DNA from: an uncultured Oxalobacteraceae bacterium | GTDB taxonomy: Bacteria; Pseudomonadota; Gammaproteobacteria; Burkholderiales; Burkholderiaceae_D | Assembly: GCA_937996605.1 (NCBI GenBank) | Contig: CALKVB010000436.1 | Span: 1 to 61,548, forward strand | DNA: 61,548 nucleotides | Direction of reading: 5' to 3' | Shown here: positions 20,914 through 28,146 of the stretch, piece after piece | Numbering within the stretch: position 1 is the stretch's first letter | How the letters are laid out: every line of letters begins with the position of its first letter | Position numbers and translations under genes: made by a program | The notes under the pieces: generated by a model | Databases searched by the model: none | What the model was told of the DNA's origin: nothing | Seen by the model: only the letters and a program-made list of their open reading frames with translations

Positions 20914-21471
20914 ATGAATAAGAAGTTGAAAGTAGCATTAGCTTTAGTATTCGGTTTGACCAGCGCTGCGCAAATTGCCTATGCCATGACGGTTAATTCG
21001 ACCTACGTTAACAACACGGGTAATGAAATCCGCGGAATCTTTGGACGTTATTCCAACCCAACGATTTATCTCGATCGTCGCGCCTGTGGCGAATCTCAAT
21101 TGTCGGCTATGGCATGTGGGCCGTACACCATTAGTGTCGGAAGTTCCTTCCTGCAAAACGCAGAGAACAATTACGGCAATTATGCGGCGAAAGCTATCTT
21201 AGGGCATGAATGGGGTCATACGATTCAATTTACCTATAACATCAATCCCGGTCAGCCTTACCTCGAGTTGCAGGCCGATTGCGCGGGCGGTTCTTTCATT
21301 CGTTATGCGGTCGATAGTTTGCGTTATCCGAACTTCTTAGCGACTGCCGTGAGTGCTGCACGTGCCTATGCAGGTGGTGATCATGGTACTCCTGCTCAAC
21401 GCGATTACTACACACGTTGGGGCTACACTAATGGCATTTCCAAATGTCTGAATAACCTACCGCGCGTTTAA
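20914..21471 (+). CDS. Secreted neutral zinc metallopeptidase (YpfJ/zincin-like)
   Basis: Strong SD aggagg before ATG 20914, signal peptide, HEWGH...ELQADC and DHGTPAQR motifs. Confidence 0.8.
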   Translation: MNKKLKVALALVFGLTSAAQIAYAMTVNSTYVNNTGNEIRGIFGRYSNPTIYLDRRACGESQLSAMACGPYTISVGSSFLQNAENNYGNYAAKAILGHEWGHTIQFTYNINPGQPYLELQADCAGGSFIRYAVDSLRYPNFLATAVSAARAYAGGDHGTPAQRDYYTRWGYTNGISKCLNNLPRV

Positions 21472-21604
21472 TTTTTGTTGGCGGCATTGTTGGAACCAAT
21501 GATGTAGGTAATCGGTAGAGTCACACTTTCAAAAGAGGTGTGACTCTCTGCTCAACGCAATGCTTAGATGCAAATAGAAGTGTCAGAATGAAGTGGAGCA
21601 TGGC

Positions 21605-22399
21605 ATGAAAAAAATGAATATCGTACTCACAGTGAGCGCTACATTGCTTGTTGGTTCAAGCTATGTTTTGTGGCAGTCGATGACTACACAAGAACAACGA
21701 GAGTTGGCGGCGGCAAGTGTTAGCTCTGCTGCAGGCAAAGATAAAGTAGAATTCGCGAGCAGTGCCTCACGCCCCGATGTTGGACATGCGCATGGTGAAA
21801 AAGCGAACCCTTGGCAAGCGTCGCCATTTCAAGTTGCAGGTACTCCGACGGCGATTCCTAATTTTGGACCGATGAATAAGCTTGACCCAGCTCAGGTTCC
21901 CGAGCCAGAGAAAGAAGTGGTATCGCCGGAAGAACTCGCGCGCCGTCAGAAGATGACGGCATTAGGCTATATGGTGCCTACTGACTACTACAGCAAAGAT
22001 GTAAAAACCCTAAAGCAATTGGCGAAATCCGGCGATGCCTATGCAATGGTGCATCTCGGAGAAAAATATTATTTTGAATTAAACGGCCAGACAACGAATC
22101 CAGATTTTGAACAAGGTCTTGATTATCCTGCGGCAGCCAAACAATCGTTTAAAGACGCCTTGGTCGCAGGTAACGTCAGATCAGCAGGCATCATTGCTGA
22201 ACTGTATTTTCAAGAGAAGAATCCAACCGAAGCCTATGCCTGGCACTTAATTTCGGATCAACTTGGTGACGATATCAGTGCCAATTGGTTCCGTCGTACT
22301 GAGATGGCACAGCAAGCGACACCGGCTATCAAGCAGGCGGCGGCAACTCGTGCAGCACAAATTATGAGTGAACTTAAGCTCGCTAAAAAATCGAGCTAG
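21605..22399 (+). CDS. Membrane-anchored hypothetical protein with Sel1-like helical repeats
   Basis: N-terminal hydrophobic segment, Pro/Ala linker, AKSGDAYAMVHLG...EAYAW Sel1-like pattern. Confidence 0.6.
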   Translation: MKKMNIVLTVSATLLVGSSYVLWQSMTTQEQRELAAASVSSAAGKDKVEFASSASRPDVGHAHGEKANPWQASPFQVAGTPTAIPNFGPMNKLDPAQVPEPEKEVVSPEELARRQKMTALGYMVPTDYYSKDVKTLKQLAKSGDAYAMVHLGEKYYFELNGQTTNPDFEQGLDYPAAAKQSFKDALVAGNVRSAGIIAELYFQEKNPTEAYAWHLISDQLGDDISANWFRRTEMAQQATPAIKQAAATRAAQIMSELKLAKKSS

Positions 22400-22526: not shown

Positions 22527-23804
22527 TTACTTACTCGCAGCTTTCACCACTTCGCCCGCTTTGATCACCACTGCGACATTTTCTAAGAGGCGTACGTCTT
22601 TACTTGGATCACCCTTGACGGCGACCATATCGGCAAAACGACCTGCTTCGATGATACCGACATCTTTGCTGGCCAAGGCTTCTGCAGCATTGATCGTCGC
22701 CGCTTGAATTGCTTGTACCGGCGTCATGCCATATTTCACCATGGTGGCGAATTGTTTTGCGTTGTCGCCATGTGGGTAAATACCGGCGTCGGTACCGTAC
22801 ACCATTTTCACGCCGGCTGCGTGCGCTTTGCGGAATCCTTCGCGTTGGATGTCTGCGACTTCGCGGTCTTTACGCAAATTATCTTCAAGCACACCATTCT
22901 TTTTACCTTCCGATTGCGTGTAATCGGTGTTGTAAATGTCCATTGACAAGTAGGCGCCATGCTTCTTAGCGAGCGCAATACCTTCATCATCGATCAAACT
23001 GGCGTGCTCAATGGTGTCAATGCCAGCACGAATCGCATCCTTAATACCTGATGTGCCATGTGCATGCGCTGCCACGCGCAAGTCCCATTGATGTGCTTCC
23101 TCAGCAATGGCTTTCATTTCCGTTAGACTTAATTGCTGTTGGCCTGGTTCAGTATTGTGTGAAAACACGCCACCAGTCGCACAAATCTTGATGACTTGCG
23201 CACCATACTTACGTAATTCGCGCACACGTTTGCGGCCTTCTTCTGGGCTATCGGCGTTGTATGGGCTACGTTGATTCATCGACGGTGGGAAGAAAGTCGA
23301 GTCGCAATGACCGCCGGTAGCACCGAAGGAATACGCAGCGGTAACGATACGTGGACCACGCACTTTTCCTTCATCGATGGCCTCGCGCAGTCCTACGTCA
23401 TTCCATGCGTCTGAACCCACATTGCGTACCGTAGTGAAGCCTGCATCCAAAGTGCGGCTGGCGTGAGGAACGGTGATGATAGACCAGAAGCGATCGTTAA
23501 ATTGCAGCGTGTTATAGCCGCCATAAGTGGGATCACTATCGAGATGGACGTGCATATCGATCAAACCTGGAACCAAGGTCATACCTGCTAAATCGATTTT
23601 CTTGGTATCGGCAGCAACACTCTGTGCACCTTGCTTCACACTAACGATACGACCATCGCGCACTAAGATCTGCGGATTCGCGATCATTTTTCCTGTACGC
23701 ACATCGAGCATTTGGCTCGCGGAAATCAAAACATCAGCCGCTTGCGCATAAGCTGAAAAACTTAAAGCAGCGGCAATCGCCGTCAAAGAAAAAGCAAACT
23801 TCAT
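22527..23804 (-). CDS. Secreted amidohydrolase-superfamily peptidase (Xaa-Pro dipeptidase-like)
   Basis: Start revised to MKFAFSL (signal peptide ...AYAQA). PGLIDMHVH, GFTTVRNVG, IKICATGG, AHAHG, IEHAS, GTDAG. Confidence 0.88.
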   Translation of the reverse strand: MKFAFSLTAIAAALSFSAYAQAADVLISASQMLDVRTGKMIANPQILVRDGRIVSVKQGAQSVAADTKKIDLAGMTLVPGLIDMHVHLDSDPTYGGYNTLQFNDRFWSIITVPHASRTLDAGFTTVRNVGSDAWNDVGLREAIDEGKVRGPRIVTAAYSFGATGGHCDSTFFPPSMNQRSPYNADSPEEGRKRVRELRKYGAQVIKICATGGVFSHNTEPGQQQLSLTEMKAIAEEAHQWDLRVAAHAHGTSGIKDAIRAGIDTIEHASLIDDEGIALAKKHGAYLSMDIYNTDYTQSEGKKNGVLEDNLRKDREVADIQREGFRKAHAAGVKMVYGTDAGIYPHGDNAKQFATMVKYGMTPVQAIQAATINAAEALASKDVGIIEAGRFADMVAVKGDPSKDVRLLENVAVVIKAGEVVKAASK

Positions 23805-23940
23805 TGAGTAACTCCAGTGAGAGAAAAAATACAGCAGGTGCTGAGCGCTGCTTAGTATCGCGTTTGTATCGGGCATGGTCAAACCATAGCGCAGAATCTG
23901 ACGTACGCTACCAACAATCGAGTCATAAATGAATAAATTG

Positions 23941-23971
23941 AAAAGCAAAAAGCCCACCAAATGGCGGGCTT
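23941..23971 (-). terminator. Intrinsic terminator closing the csp 3' region
   Basis: Minus strand AAGCCCGCCAUUUGGUGGGCUUUUUGCUUUU: GC-rich stem followed by a U-tract. Confidence 0.75.
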
Positions 23972-24348
23972 CGTGAACAACAATAAGTATAAAAAAGCAT
24001 GCATCGAATTCCCATCCCACCGACGCTATCTGCGAAGTGTGTGATGTGGTCTCAAGCCCATGCTATCTGCATGGTGCCCTTGTGAAATTCAATTACGGCG
24101 GGTTCGTTCCGCTGTTCTTATTCTGTGTTGGGTGAGTTTGCCGCAACCGGTACGGCATACCGTTACACCATCTTCGCTTGCCCACACTATCTGTGTGGTG
24201 CTACACGCCGGTGAGAACGATGAGGCAAAGCCTCAATCACTTTTCTTTGATTGCGATCGATGAACTTTTGTCTTCCCAACGCTATCTGCGAAGTGGTCAA
24301 CGTCAGTGCATGATGCAATGGCGAATCTCTGTCTCAATTAAAAATTGA
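23946..24348 (-). ncRNA. Putative structured RNA or long 3'-UTR with four C-AGAUA-G hairpins
   Basis: Four ctatctg-centred inverted repeats (loops at 24027-31, 24064-68, 24188-92, 24283-87), compensatory stem changes, additional hairpins and a distal terminator. Confidence 0.6.
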
Positions 24349-24558
24349 TTACAAAACCTGAATATTGCTGGCTTTGTCGCCTTTAGGGCTAGCAGTGCGT
24401 TCAAACGAAACACGCTGATTTTCCGAAAGGCTTTTGAAACCATTGGATTGAATGTCCTGGAAATGGGCGAACAGATCCGCACCACCTGTATCTGGTGTAA
24501 TAAAACCAAAACCTTTTGCGTCGTTGAACCATTTGACGATGCCTGTTTGTTGAGTCAT
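24349..24558 (-). CDS. Cold-shock protein (CspA family)
   Basis: [15 protein letters not shown] (RNP1) and LFAHF (RNP2); 69 aa. SD gaagga. Confidence 0.97.
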
Positions 24559-24972
24559 GTTATTTCCTTCGTTGTATCGATCTAGCTGTTTTACCGGCGG
24601 CTTAATGTCGCGCAGCTAATGTTGCATTGATCTTTTTTCTTGAAGCAAAGAGGGATGAAATCATATACAAATTGAATTATGCGTATGAAGCCCATTTTGC
24701 CCGTGGACGAAATTGTCCTGTGGCACTGAGAACCAAGAGATGAAACCGAAGGAGAACAAACAGAACGACTAGAAGAGAACAGCCATGCGGAATTGGGACC
24801 AACAATATTACGACCTGATGCAAGTACAGGACGCAATATACAGGGCTTTTTGGAAATCACCTAATTATATTTTGGAAAAATGAAAAATAGTGTGAAGTTG
24901 CGAAATACCAAATTGGCCAGATGGCGGCGAACATTGAAGTTGACCGCCATACTAAACACGTACTTGAGCGTA

Positions 24973-25500
24973 TCAACGGAAGAAGTTGTATCGCGCAGTG
25001 TAAGCTATCCGCACTTCCTTGCCGAGGTTGGAGCCATCGCAAGTTATATTGGGTGCTTTTCCATCTTTAGTTGAAACACGCTGAATACTTTTTACTTGAG
25101 AAAAGATTCCAGTACCGCTGTTTGACTTCGCCTTCAGCAGCAACAAAGGAATCGCATTTGCATCGGCGCTGTCGGCGCGTGCAACGACTTCGCCAACTAC
25201 TTTACTGCCATCATTGCTTTCCCAGCTTGGTCCAGCATAGTGTTTGCCGACTACATTGCCTTGTTGGTCGAATAGTTTCGCTTCTGGCGCGAGGAAAACC
25301 CATTCATATTTATTGGAATCCTTGGCATTTGTTTTGCAAGCATAAATTTGCACGCCTTCGGCCGCAAAATCGAAAGTAAAACTTTGATCAGCGGGAGCTT
25401 TCAAAGCTTCTGGTGCTGCTTGTACGGGAGAGGTTGGAACTGTAGTGCATGCATTAAGAGTGGCAAGCATAAATGTGAGTAGACTGACTTTGTGTTTCAT
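24973..25500 (-). CDS. DUF3455-like lipoprotein
   Basis: Start revised to MKHKVSLL with lipobox LNAC. AEGVQIYAC, WVFLAPEA, GKHYAGPSW, IQRVSTKDGKAP, YTARYNF. Confidence 0.75.
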   Translation of the reverse strand: MKHKVSLLTFMLATLNACTTVPTSPVQAAPEALKAPADQSFTFDFAAEGVQIYACKTNAKDSNKYEWVFLAPEAKLFDQQGNVVGKHYAGPSWESNDGSKVVGEVVARADSADANAIPLLLLKAKSNSGTGIFSQVKSIQRVSTKDGKAPNITCDGSNLGKEVRIAYTARYNFFR

Positions 25501-25773: not shown

Positions 25774-28146
25774 ATGCAGGTTAAGCAAGCATATGTCGCT
25801 GCGATGGATAAGCCACTGACTTCCGCTCAGCGCTTAATTTTTTTTAAGCGCCTCCAGACACTAACGAATAAGATCCACGCCACCAATGCGGTGGATCAGA
25901 TCATGCTTGATCTTACCGCCGATATTTGTGATCTATTCGATTGTGATCGCCTGACCATTTATGCAATTGCGCCAGACGGCAAGAACCTTATTTCTAAAGT
26001 AAAAAAAGGATTGAATTCATTCAGAGACATACGTTTACCGATTTCTGATCAGAGTATCGCTGGCTATGTCGCTGGACATCGTGAAGCCTTGTGCATTCGT
26101 GATGTCTATGATGAGGAAGAGCTAAGGCGCGTTTCACCACAATTACATTTTCAAAAAGCGATCGATCAGAAGACTGGGTATAGAACGCGCGAGATGTTAG
26201 CTGCGCCTATTATCGAAACCAAAACAGGACTGCTGGTTGGCGTGATTCAATTTATTAATAGCCGTCATGGCGACCCTTTCACTATCATCGCACAAGAAGG
26301 TGTGAAAGAGCTATGTGAAACACTGTCGATTGCTTTTTCGCAGAAGAGTCGCGTGATTCAAATCCCGCCATCTAAGTTAAATTATTTAGTGACGGAAGGT
26401 ATTGTTTCGATTGCCGAATTTGAAGCGGCGATCGCCAGTGCGCGACTTAAGCAGTGCGACCTTGAGGATGTCTTGATCGATGAATTTCAAGTATCGCCTG
26501 AACAAATTGGGCATGCATTAGCAAAATTTTTTAATGTGCCTTATGAGCCTTTCCAAGCAGATCGCGTGATTGATGTTGAGTTGATCAAGCGGTTGAAACG
26601 CCAGTATGTCGATGAAACTGGGTGGCTCCCAGTGTCAGATGAAAAGAGCGGCATGACGGTATTAGCGCTCGACCCCGAACAAGTGAAAGCGACGCGCGTG
26701 GTGAGTATGATTTTCCCTGGCGCACATTTACATTTTAAGACCACCACTCGACGCGAATTCAAACAAACAGTTGATCAATTCTTTGGGCAAACGGCAAATA
26801 CAGGTTCTGTTGATGAACTTTTATCTGGGCTTGAAGAAGATGATGAAGAGCACTCAAATAATCAAAGTAATGAGGTGTCCGCCGCGGTAGAAAATGAATT
26901 AGTGAAATTGCTGAATAAGATTATCGTCGACGCTTATCAACAAGGTGCTTCTGATATTCATATTGAACCTCGACCCGGCAAGGAAAAAACGCTAATCCGA
27001 TTCCGTAAAGATGGCTCATTGACGCCATATATCGAAATTCCGGCCAGCTACCGCAATGCACTGCTTGCACGTATCAAGATCATGTGTGATCTCGATATCT
27101 CCGAAAAGCGCAAACCGCAAGACGGCAAAATTAAGTTCAAAAAATACGGTCCTCTCGATATTGAATTGCGGGTGGCGACCATCCCCTCAGCCGGTGGTAT
27201 GGAAGACGTGGTGATGCGTATTTTGGCGGCGGGGGAACCAATCCCGCTCGAGAAATTGGGGATCTTGCCGCACAACCTCAAACGCCTCAAAGACGTGGTT
27301 GATAAACCGTATGGTATTTTCTTTGTATGTGGACCAACCGGCTCAGGAAAGACCACCACTTTGCATTCGGTTTTACATTATCTCAACCGACCCGAAACCA
27401 AAATTTGGACTGCGGAAGATCCAGTAGAAATTACGCAAAAAGGCTTACGCCAGGTTCAAGTCAATCGTAAAGCGGGGATGGATTTTGCTACAGTGATGCG
27501 CGCCTTTTTGCGTGCCGATCCTGATGTGATTATGGTTGGCGAAATGCGCGATAAAGAAACCGTATCGATTGGTCTAGAGGCTTCACTAACAGGCCACTTA
27601 GTGTTCGCTACTTTACACACCAATAGCGCACCAGAATCGATCATACGTTTGCTGGATATGGGCATGGACCCATTTAACTTTGCCGATGCTTTGCTTGGTA
27701 TCTTGGCGCAACGTTTAGCGAAGCGTTTATGCAGCAATTGCAAAGTCGCTTACCAACCAAGTAAAGAAGAAATCGCGAGTCTGCTCAATGAATATTGCGC
27801 AGAGCTATTACCAACCACGGAATTTCAACAAAGCCCTGAAGCGGCAAAGTTAAAAGTACTCAAACACTGGATGCGTAGCTATGGCGATGAAAAAGGTCAA
27901 TTGACTTTATATCGCGCGCAAGGATGTGATAAATGTAGTGGCGGTTATAAAGGTCGTGTTGGTCTCCATGAATTAATGGTAGGAACCGACCCAGTCAAGA
28001 AGTTAATCCAAGAGCACGCACGCGTCGCACAACTCTTTACTGCGGCACTCGAAGACGGCATGTTGACCTTGAAGATGGATGGCATAGAAAAGGTCTTGTC
28101 GGGCATCACCGATATGAAGCAGGTGCGCCTGGTATGCATTAAATAG
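25774..28146 (+). CDS. GspE/PilB-family secretion/pilus ATPase with N-terminal GAF domain
   Basis: GAF (SIAGYVA...DVY...DQKTGYRTREMLAAPI...VIQFINS), ASDIHIEP, GPTGSGKTT, AEDPVE, LRADPDVIMVGEMRD, TLHTNSA, two CxxC. Confidence 0.92.
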   Translation: MQVKQAYVAAMDKPLTSAQRLIFFKRLQTLTNKIHATNAVDQIMLDLTADICDLFDCDRLTIYAIAPDGKNLISKVKKGLNSFRDIRLPISDQSIAGYVAGHREALCIRDVYDEEELRRVSPQLHFQKAIDQKTGYRTREMLAAPIIETKTGLLVGVIQFINSRHGDPFTIIAQEGVKELCETLSIAFSQKSRVIQIPPSKLNYLVTEGIVSIAEFEAAIASARLKQCDLEDVLIDEFQVSPEQIGHALAKFFNVPYEPFQADRVIDVELIKRLKRQYVDETGWLPVSDEKSGMTVLALDPEQVKATRVVSMIFPGAHLHFKTTTRREFKQTVDQFFGQTANTGSVDELLSGLEEDDEEHSNNQSNEVSAAVENELVKLLNKIIVDAYQQGASDIHIEPRPGKEKTLIRFRKDGSLTPYIEIPASYRNALLARIKIMCDLDISEKRKPQDGKIKFKKYGPLDIELRVATIPSAGGMEDVVMRILAAGEPIPLEKLGILPHNLKRLKDVVDKPYGIFFVCGPTGSGKTTTLHSVLHYLNRPETKIWTAEDPVEITQKGLRQVQVNRKAGMDFATVMRAFLRADPDVIMVGEMRDKETVSIGLEASLTGHLVFATLHTNSAPESIIRLLDMGMDPFNFADALLGILAQRLAKRLCSNCKVAYQPSKEEIASLLNEYCAELLPTTEFQQSPEAAKLKVLKHWMRSYGDEKGQLTLYRAQGCDKCSGGYKGRVGLHELMVGTDPVKKLIQEHARVAQLFTAALEDGMLTLKMDGIEKVLSGITDMKQVRLVCIK

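Follow-up and report, generated by a model that had tools for sequence, protein, structure and literature searches.

A Bulged AGAUA-Loop Hairpin, Apparently Undescribed, Shared by a Cold-Shock mRNA, Free-Standing RNA Genes, and Phage Leaders in Oxalobacteraceae

Organization of the csp Locus

The window, the whole 61,548-nt stretch of DNA that was analyzed, comes from an uncultured bacterium of the Oxalobacteraceae and carries on its minus strand a small cold-shock gene (csp) preceded by a long leader and followed by a structured trailer:

24835-24863, minus strand: promoter predicted from the sequence, with -35 TAGGTG (24863-24858), a 17-nt spacer, and -10 TATATT (24840-24835)
24559-24828, minus strand: csp 5' leader of about 270 nt, from an alignment with five relatives
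24569-24565, minus strand: ribosome-binding site of csp, within the 5' leader
24349-24558, minus strand: cold-shock gene csp, 69 aa, with a PF00313 cold-shock domain spanning the whole protein
23941-24348, minus strand: structured 3' trailer of csp, 405 nt to the U-tract, from its fold and from RNA contigs down to 24001
23941-23972, minus strand: intrinsic terminator-like site, stem 23972-23949

Transcription of csp is predicted from the promoter sequence to start at about 24828. This promoter is absent from the calls of a consensus promoter scan of the window, and a comparison of loci found its spacing again 5' of related csp genes. The -35 element in the promoters of this csp subtype, TAGGYG, is non-consensus yet conserved and lies 17 nt 5' of TATATT. 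The initial 130 nt or so of the leader are pyrimidine-rich and conserved in the alignment with five relatives, and a leader profile has a single match in the window's own genome. In having its coding sequence preceded by such a leader, long and conserved, the csp gene resembles the cspA thermoregulator (RF01766); however, the leader has no Rfam match, RF01766 has no match in the window at either threshold and only weak sub-threshold matches in three related loci that contain csp, and that family does not span a 3' trailer.

The genes flanking the unit differ among relatives. In the window, the neighbors encode an Xaa-Pro dipeptidase-type amidohydrolase (22527-23873, minus strand), a DUF3455 protein (24973-25500, minus strand), and a GAF-containing PilB/GspE-type ATPase (25774-28146, plus strand). 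Two further plus-strand open reading frames lack a Pfam family: 20917-21471, which has a weak neutral zinc metallopeptidase match (E 8e-5), and 21593-22399.

A preliminary description of this DNA had proposed that csp and a structured RNA of about 400 nt, roughly twice the length of the coding sequence, form one transcription unit, given that no terminator directly follows the csp stop and the first lies at about 23941-23971. Our measurements agree: a terminator scan found one minus-strand terminator-like site only between the stop codon and 23941 (stem 23972-23949), the trailer measures 405 nt or 1.9 times the coding sequence, and its fold beats 100 of 100 shuffles (z -3.75). Near-identical RNA contigs (at most two differences) cross the stop codon by at least 31 nt on each side in four of six RNA runs (four studies). 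The contig pieces are confined to 24001-24807, with contig ends at 24803-24807, and fit one transcript from the promoter at 24863-24835 to the terminator. We treat this as a hint of a single unit and not as proof because strand and transcript ends cannot be read from the contigs, the RNA runs had been selected as containing this stretch, and there was no working DNA control; uncovered flanks in these runs are not evidence of silence.

In addition to the four hairpins described below, the preliminary description had listed further stems in plus-strand letters. With probabilities computed on the transcribed strand, stems are expected at 24221-35 (p 0.96-0.99 for the inner pair) and at 24098-112 (p 0.75-0.93), whereas the one at 24148-62 (p 0.05-0.16) and the ggtg/cacc pairing enclosing it (p 0.02-0.09) are predicted mostly not to form; all three stems (24221-35, 24148-62, and 24098-112) are absent from the consensus of 22 trailers. 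Trailers with four hairpins in relatives are 520-764 nt long. A terminator lies 3' of the last hairpin in all 22 trailers, and the first two hairpin copies of csp trailers are 250-550 nt away from it; across most bacterial loci, a terminator follows the hairpin within about 60-125 nt. Searched against an annotated plasmid collection, the trailer gave matches at its terminator only.

Structure and Covariation of the Hairpin

The trailer contains a 20-nt repeat in four copies, 95, 124, and 37 nt apart and 75-95% identical to a reference copy, with CAGATAG at 24282, 24187, 24063, and 24026. CAGATAG occurs at 332 sites in the 5.0-Mb assembly, and the trailer is the only cluster of at least three within 400 nt. 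The hairpin unit comprises a lower stem with a minimum of three pairs, then a bulged A, an upper stem of 6 bp, and an AGAUA loop:

24273-24298, minus strand: hairpin copy 1, two upper-stem mismatches, 31 bits with the copy itself included in model building
24178-24203, minus strand: hairpin copy 2, perfect upper stem
24054-24079, minus strand: hairpin copy 3, perfect upper stem
24017-24042, minus strand: hairpin copy 4, two upper-stem mismatches, 37 nt after copy 3
24157-24223, minus strand: long arm bearing hairpin 2, with an asymmetric internal loop in which GG lies opposite five mostly A/G bases

Folding of the single sequence leaves hairpins 1 and 4 borderline, with p 0.50 and 0.22 for their respective closing pairs at 37 C. 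Across 22 loci, all 86 copies have an A as the bulge and 84 of the 86 have C-G directly beneath it; these copies were picked by loop and upper stem alone, so that the bulge and its flanking C-G pair played no part in their selection. An alignment of 63 bacterial and phage sequences has 86.3% of cells paired and 7 of 10 pairs changed on both sides, a degree of covariation that 0 of 500 shuffles reach and that compares with 29-51% in slid-register controls. This alignment was selected by pattern, and its invariant columns prove nothing alone because the selection fixed them. The long arm also covaries: an alignment of 10 sequences shows two-sided changes at 13 of 26 pairs, with 85.7% of cells paired (0 of 500 shuffles); its outer helix is not favored in the window's own fold (p about 0.01).

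The hairpin appears to be read as RNA from the csp strand, given that, one position excepted, G-U wobbles number 80 and A-C mispairs 4. At the excepted stem position, C-A is found in 34 of 78 sequences and would be G-U on the opposite strand. The same strand bias of the G-U pairs, together with a loop that is fixed and asymmetric, makes a DNA site unlikely. A coding peptide repeat was rejected because the copies fall in all three reading frames (33, 32, and 20) and the peptides they share derive from the motif itself, and a CRISPR array because the spacing is irregular (95, 124, and 37 nt) and the repeats are only 75-95% identical to the reference copy. The AGAUA loop equals five bases of the 16S 790 loop; this link was set aside because the flanks differ and a short motif for the 790 loop was not found in the assembly.

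Distribution of the Hairpin Family

A strict hairpin pattern matched at 335 places, spread over 162 of the 301 genomes searched in the family (a tally that, like the subtype-pattern tally below, includes the unpublished genome G115), compared with 14 for the reversed control (hand-counted). The pattern is absent from the other 139 of 301, about half of the family. A covariance model recovered one variant in 78 pattern-negative genomes; only 90 candidates were scored per genome, and absence is therefore to be read as "not found." In other families of the order, strict matches are at chance level (8 of 244 genomes vs. 9 control hits), and a pattern requiring two copies is found in 0 of 200 other genomes of the class. 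Another family of the order (f6) has single strict matches in three of six genomes, and one of these (G029:C1:459211-459230) can fold as the hairpin. Named records (at least 121 loci) belong mostly to Undibacterium, Massilia, Duganella, Janthinobacterium, Collimonas, Herbaspirillum, and Noviherbaspirillum, which identifies the family as Oxalobacteraceae. Two metagenome-assembled records titled Bifidobacterium (L255 and L360) contain a betaproteobacterial-type csp, its leader, and two hairpins and are probably mislabeled or misbinned.

Rfam gave zero matches at gathering level in the window and tRNAs only in 20 related loci, and scans by E-value gave terminator-driven and sub-threshold cspA matches only. 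A description of this hairpin RNA was not found in the open full-text literature or, among motif catalogs, in Rfam, which together were the scope of the search, nor in the available parts of PMC7011215 (including one supplement, by motif search), PMC6337395, and PMC13370968. The hairpin RNA is thus a real, conserved, and apparently undescribed motif family: a structured motif outside Rfam that is common to the mRNAs of csp, to small genes that stand alone, and to probable late leaders of phages, all within a single large family whose members live in soil, in water, and with plants.

Linkage to a Cold-Shock Protein Subtype and Independence from It

The Csp encoded in the window belongs to a subtype, defined by D or E two places after HF, in which HFQDI and GDKA take the place of the HFSAI and GKQA of ordinary paralogues. 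A strict hairpin lies within 800 nt of csp in 79 of 90 subtype loci vs. 0 of 42 ordinary csp loci; many loci were chosen by their hairpin, and among loci chosen by protein, a set enriched for negatives, the count is 21 of 31. The 21 orthologue loci from 24 genomes of the same genus contain four hairpins in 20 cases and two in one, and hairpins are found at none of 19 paralogue loci and at neither of the two paralogues in the window's own genome. Four genomes of this genus lack both the subtype gene and the hairpin.

The linkage is not obligate in either direction. Eleven of the 90 subtype genes lack a strict hairpin, five of them having a short plain 3' end. Conversely, in three genera the hairpin is present in 40 of 42 genomes and the subtype DNA pattern in 0 of 42 (hand tally), and in five genomes of these genera (one or two contigs each) all 12 Csp matches are ordinary; ordinary Csps are present in 10 of 10 genomes searched by protein. 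Two loci without the open reading frame keep a csp-type leader joined directly to three to five hairpins. In L379 (1270-1720; G151:C14), the csp leader runs straight into five hairpins, which a terminator follows; a promoter-like stretch is positioned as in csp loci, and G151, which is 95% complete, has three Csp matches, all ordinary; the second (L415; G126:C194) occurs alongside an intact csp locus in the same genome. These loci provide a clear case of an mRNA becoming a noncoding RNA gene.

The proposal that the Csp is coexpressed with its own RNA ligand is weakened by these results. The multivalent RNA is conserved (2-4 hairpins in 21 of 21 loci) and its association with the subtype is as stated above; however, the hairpin is retained in 40 of 42 genomes without the subtype and in two loci without the open reading frame, and 11 of 90 subtype genes do without it. 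Because the hairpin persists where the subtype csp is missing, a decoy for another host protein is likelier than a decoy for the neighboring Csp.

Free-Standing RNA Genes

Among 37 loci without csp, 22 have a terminator after the hairpin, and most of these also have sigma-70-like boxes upstream; we take these as free-standing units. The remainder are two loci that share flanks, one prophage-type leader, and 12 that look like chance matches. Tandem copies of the free-standing gene occur in records named Massilia aquatica and M. frigida (L279, L257, L340, and L341). Of 125 loci, 64 have the next gene beyond the terminator on the same strand and 60 have it in convergent orientation (by a crude longest-ORF rule), a mix that argues against control of a downstream gene.

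A TGC-N3-GCA palindrome lies upstream of 51 of 101 loci without csp vs. 2 of 75 csp loci, nearly always just 5' of an extended -10 box and about 170 nt upstream of the hairpin; its arms are T- and A-rich. Examples (L072, L073, L075, L085-L087, and L254-L373) are of Massilia/Duganella/Janthinobacterium type. The PhaR motif given in the accessible portion of PMC12542648 fits this palindrome, and a phaR-type gene is present in five of five genomes searched. As a side clue to regulation, the palindrome sequence may thus reflect control by a PhaR-like protein.

A second IF-1 gene is often located within about 1.2 kb of the RNA, whether or not csp is present (L021, L055, L058, L093, L236, L260-L298, and others), and at L093 a DEAD-box-like helicase ORF lies downstream as well.

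Phage Copies of the Hairpin

Viral contigs contain at least 120 hairpin loci, and seven matches to the two-copy pattern. Among the matches listed, csp is absent from all 80 phage loci with 3 kb of context. The phage copies are single hairpins without the second internal-loop module of the long arm. A terminator adjoins the hairpin in 60 of the 120 phage loci listed, with the hairpin before it in 37, after it in 21, and between in 2, and in many phage loci the two are within about 10 nt. Among the matches listed, these terminator-linked loci differ from the others in two respects: a full lower stem is present in 56 of 60 vs. 18 of 60, and a Q-like gene lies upstream in 28 of 38 vs. 3 of 42, the queries having been three upstream proteins from these same loci, so that three matches are self-hits. 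Several phage loci have RusA-type genes upstream and HNH or small-terminase genes downstream. When late-leader position was examined, 39 of 60 hairpins were found before a terminator and 21 only after one (among the matches listed).

PHROGs, Pfam, and a PDB sequence search gave no name for the Q-like proteins. Lambda Q was the best match of a structural model of one upstream protein family (pLDDT 72.9) in both structure searches, with modest scores (Foldseek probability 0.97, E 0.094; Z 5.8, rmsd 3.7, 97 aligned residues in the other), and the identification rests on position, a zinc finger, and this modest fold match. In G220, a genome of the host family, this Q-like family occurs twice; one prophage leader contains a bulged stem with an altered loop and the other has no hairpin. 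Two phage leaders had no match in an annotated phage collection. Taken together, these phages probably infect this host family and have the hairpin in the leader of a late promoter.

Three further observations concern these loci. Phage leaders share additional conserved hairpins upstream of the motif (L103, L104, L107, L120, L127, L132, L138, L164, L170, and L180), a moron gene often separates the Q-like gene from the promoter in the same loci, and in one phage contig (L160:1570-2336) seven tRNA genes come straight after the hairpin and terminator.

Candidate Partners and Comparison with Known Systems

None of the candidate partner proteins that we considered is codistributed with the hairpin. 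CsrA (PF02599) was found in 0 of 5 genomes, among them the window's own, which is 90.65% complete (controls were positive in 3 of 14). RRM proteins were found in one of five genomes, without codistribution; ProQ was not found in the window's own genome and is present in a hairpin-negative one; and the second IF-1 was not found in three of five hairpin-positive genomes nor in the window's own. The latter genome also shows no surplus of hairpins with an AGAUA loop as candidate mRNA targets, unlike a CsrA-type regulon.

The decoy RNAs CsrB/CsrC and RsmY/RsmZ carry a repeated GGA loop motif and are encoded by free-standing sigma-70 genes with a terminator, with paralogues in each genome. The hairpin RNA is like CsrB/RsmZ in having several copies of a short loop motif on variable stems, in having multicopy hairpins in a free-standing RNA gene with sigma-70-like boxes and a terminator, and in having paralogues per genome. 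In contrast to CsrB/RsmZ, its motif is an AGAUA loop with a bulged A and not GGA, it has no Rfam match, CsrA was not found in any of the five genomes searched for it, it is often fused behind csp, and it also occurs in phage leaders. We posit that it probably works like a CsrB-type decoy without belonging to that family. Bulged stems serve as protein operators in the iron-responsive element, the MS2/PP7 coat operators, and the Cas6f repeat hairpin. Judged from its letters, the present hairpin resembles these in that one base bulges out at a set distance from a loop that is conserved, but its bulge and loop letters differ from each. The iron-responsive element has a bulged C and a CAGUGN loop, unlike the bulged A (86 of 86) and the CAGAUAG loop region found here.

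Two other comparisons concern the position of the RNA. As described in the available part of PMC8034643, the ccaF1-CcsR locus of Rhodobacter sphaeroides consists of a gene for an RNA-binding protein of about 70 aa followed by RNAs made from its 3' UTR. Both loci join a small RNA-binding protein gene to repeated RNA units in its 3' region, but the protein here has a PF00313 cold-shock domain and not DUF1127, and the hairpin RNA also exists without the gene. StxS is a small RNA from a lambdoid late-promoter leader that pairs with mRNAs via Hfq, according to the portion of PMC7547250 available. The phage copies may occupy a comparable place, beside a terminator and with a Q-like gene on one side and late genes on the other; unlike StxS, they are of a host-type hairpin common to chromosome and phage, and 21 of 60 come after the terminator (among the matches listed).

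A Proposed Trans-Acting Decoy and Its Alternatives

Stems that covary around an unchanging bulge and loop, a varying number of hairpins per RNA, duplication, survival without the open reading frame, and reuse by phages together suggest a site that acts in trans and is bound by a conserved host protein. We give about even chances to the reading that the trailer is a trans-acting multivalent decoy that titrates a conserved host RNA-binding protein, probably not the neighboring Csp. The last option raised in the preliminary description, a 3'-derived RNA titrating another protein, is in this respect the favored one, although the candidate partners lack the codistribution that would single one out. 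The RNA would be made from the csp promoter at this locus and from its own promoter elsewhere, and one protein would read the invariant bulge and loop jointly. The strength of titration may be set by copy number, with 1-5 hairpins per RNA, up to six strict matches per genome, and tandem genes in some Massilia. Phages would engage the same host factor with a one-hairpin version in the late leader, and csp would be a coregulated neighbor contributing a stress-linked promoter and not the target. Several findings stand against the decoy. No partner emerged from the candidates considered, the window's own genome shows no surplus of like hairpins, about half of the family lacks the hairpin, and one stem position would fit the opposite strand better. 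In addition, the 21 of 60 phage hairpins just after a terminator would be made only on read-through (among the matches listed), neither prophage leader of G220 has an intact hairpin, and the match to lambda Q is modest. Finally, the linkage to one Csp subtype is very tight, and the subtype csp and the hairpin are lost together in four own-genus genomes, as expected for a cognate pair.

This joint loss and, among csp loci, the confinement of the hairpin to those of the subtype (79 of 90 vs. 0 of 42) favor a widened form of the autoregulatory sponge suggested earlier, in which the hairpins bind Csps as a class, the subtype and the ordinary paralogues alike, and buffer free Csp. The presence of ordinary Csps in all 10 genomes searched by protein and the frequent proximity of the RNA to a second IF-1 gene, IF-1 being another OB-fold protein, fit such a buffer, as does the ability of the cold-shock domain of eukaryotic Lin28 to read GAU in a loop. 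Bacterial Csps, however, have low specificity and prefer single-stranded pyrimidine-rich RNA, a preference that suits the pyrimidine-rich csp 5' leader better than a purine-rich 5-nt loop. In addition, the RNA persists without the subtype, and the binding surface would seem to be larger, given that an invariant bulge lies 6 bp away from the loop. On balance a Csp buffer seems unlikely to us. The preliminary description had also entertained an RNA resembling a type III antitoxin that restrains a toxic CspD-like protein, and a repeated RNA beside a small gene to which it is tightly linked does recall such a module. Type III toxin-antitoxin systems have tandem RNA repeats upstream of the toxin gene, a terminator between the two, and an endoribonuclease of the ToxN/CptN/TenpN type, and the toxin gene is not known to occur without the RNA. 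Here the repeats are downstream of the gene and uneven (95, 124, and 37 nt), the protein is a cold-shock protein and not such an endoribonuclease, and 11 of 90 genes lack a strict hairpin. Nor is a CspD reading of the window Csp supported: the gene is not divergent from clpS-clpA, the paralogue in the CspD position next to clpS-clpA is another gene (C495), and on TIGR02381 (cut-off 115.4) the window protein scores 89 bits compared with 112.8 for the clpS-adjacent paralogue type. We give the antitoxin proposal almost no credence.

Three alternatives do not involve the Csp. The hairpin could be a cis-acting, 3'-terminal element of short transcripts, serving as decay protection, as a processing mark, or in tuning of the terminator by a bound factor; a terminator within about 60-125 nt in most bacterial loci and about 10 nt in many phage loci, and the 21 phage copies directly after a terminator (among the matches listed), would agree with this. 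We regard a cis element as decidedly unlikely, however, given that free-standing and tandem genes hold little else to protect, that the first two trailer copies are 250-550 nt from the terminator, and that downstream genes are often convergent. That the hairpin imitates the tRNA-Ile(GAU) anticodon arm, as a decoy for an anticodon nuclease or for an enzyme that binds tRNA, is highly improbable. The register does fit (C25-A26, a 5-bp stem, a 7-nt loop, GAU at 34-36, and A37), and tRNA genes are present in 8 of 37 phage loci scanned, but position 33 is an A where the in-register rows of the genome's 31 tRNAs found show U (a comparison set without tRNA-Ile(GAU), which is not assembled in this genome), and C32-G38 would pair and leave no open 7-nt loop, the covariation indicating a bulged A with the C paired to G. 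A small RNA whose loops and flanks pair with mRNAs, or with each other in a loop-receptor assembly, would draw on the second conserved internal-loop module in the arms and has parallels in repeated 3'-derived small RNAs behind a small RNA-binding protein gene (available part of PMC8034643) and in a phage late-leader RNA that pairs (available part of PMC7547250). This we consider improbable: the sole invariant single-stranded stretch is 5 nt, pairing leaves the invariant bulge unexplained, and the phage copies are one hairpin without a receptor module.

Returning to the decoy, we speculate, with less confidence than in the decoy itself, that Oxalobacteraceae possess an undescribed global RNA-protein regulatory axis in place of the missing CsrA/CsrB. 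A host protein would be titrated by the hairpin RNA, whose dose would depend on copy number and on two inputs, one a promoter of cold-shock type and the other a carbon-storage box of PhaR type, and temperate phages would have captured a one-hairpin mimic in the late leader with which to manipulate this protein. If the partner is a global regulator, the system would show decoy-RNA control in bacteria without CsrA and phage access to the same control; if it is a Csp, the RNA would buffer bacterial cold-shock proteins in a sequence-specific manner, a kind of buffer not found described in the literature searched. The 26-nt hairpin, together with loop and bulge mutants, offers a pull-down bait for the partner in culturable Janthinobacterium, Massilia, and Herbaspirillum. 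Natural mutants occur as well: in variant hairpins at three loci (L222, L233, and L428), the bulged stem is kept and the closing pair or the loop is altered.
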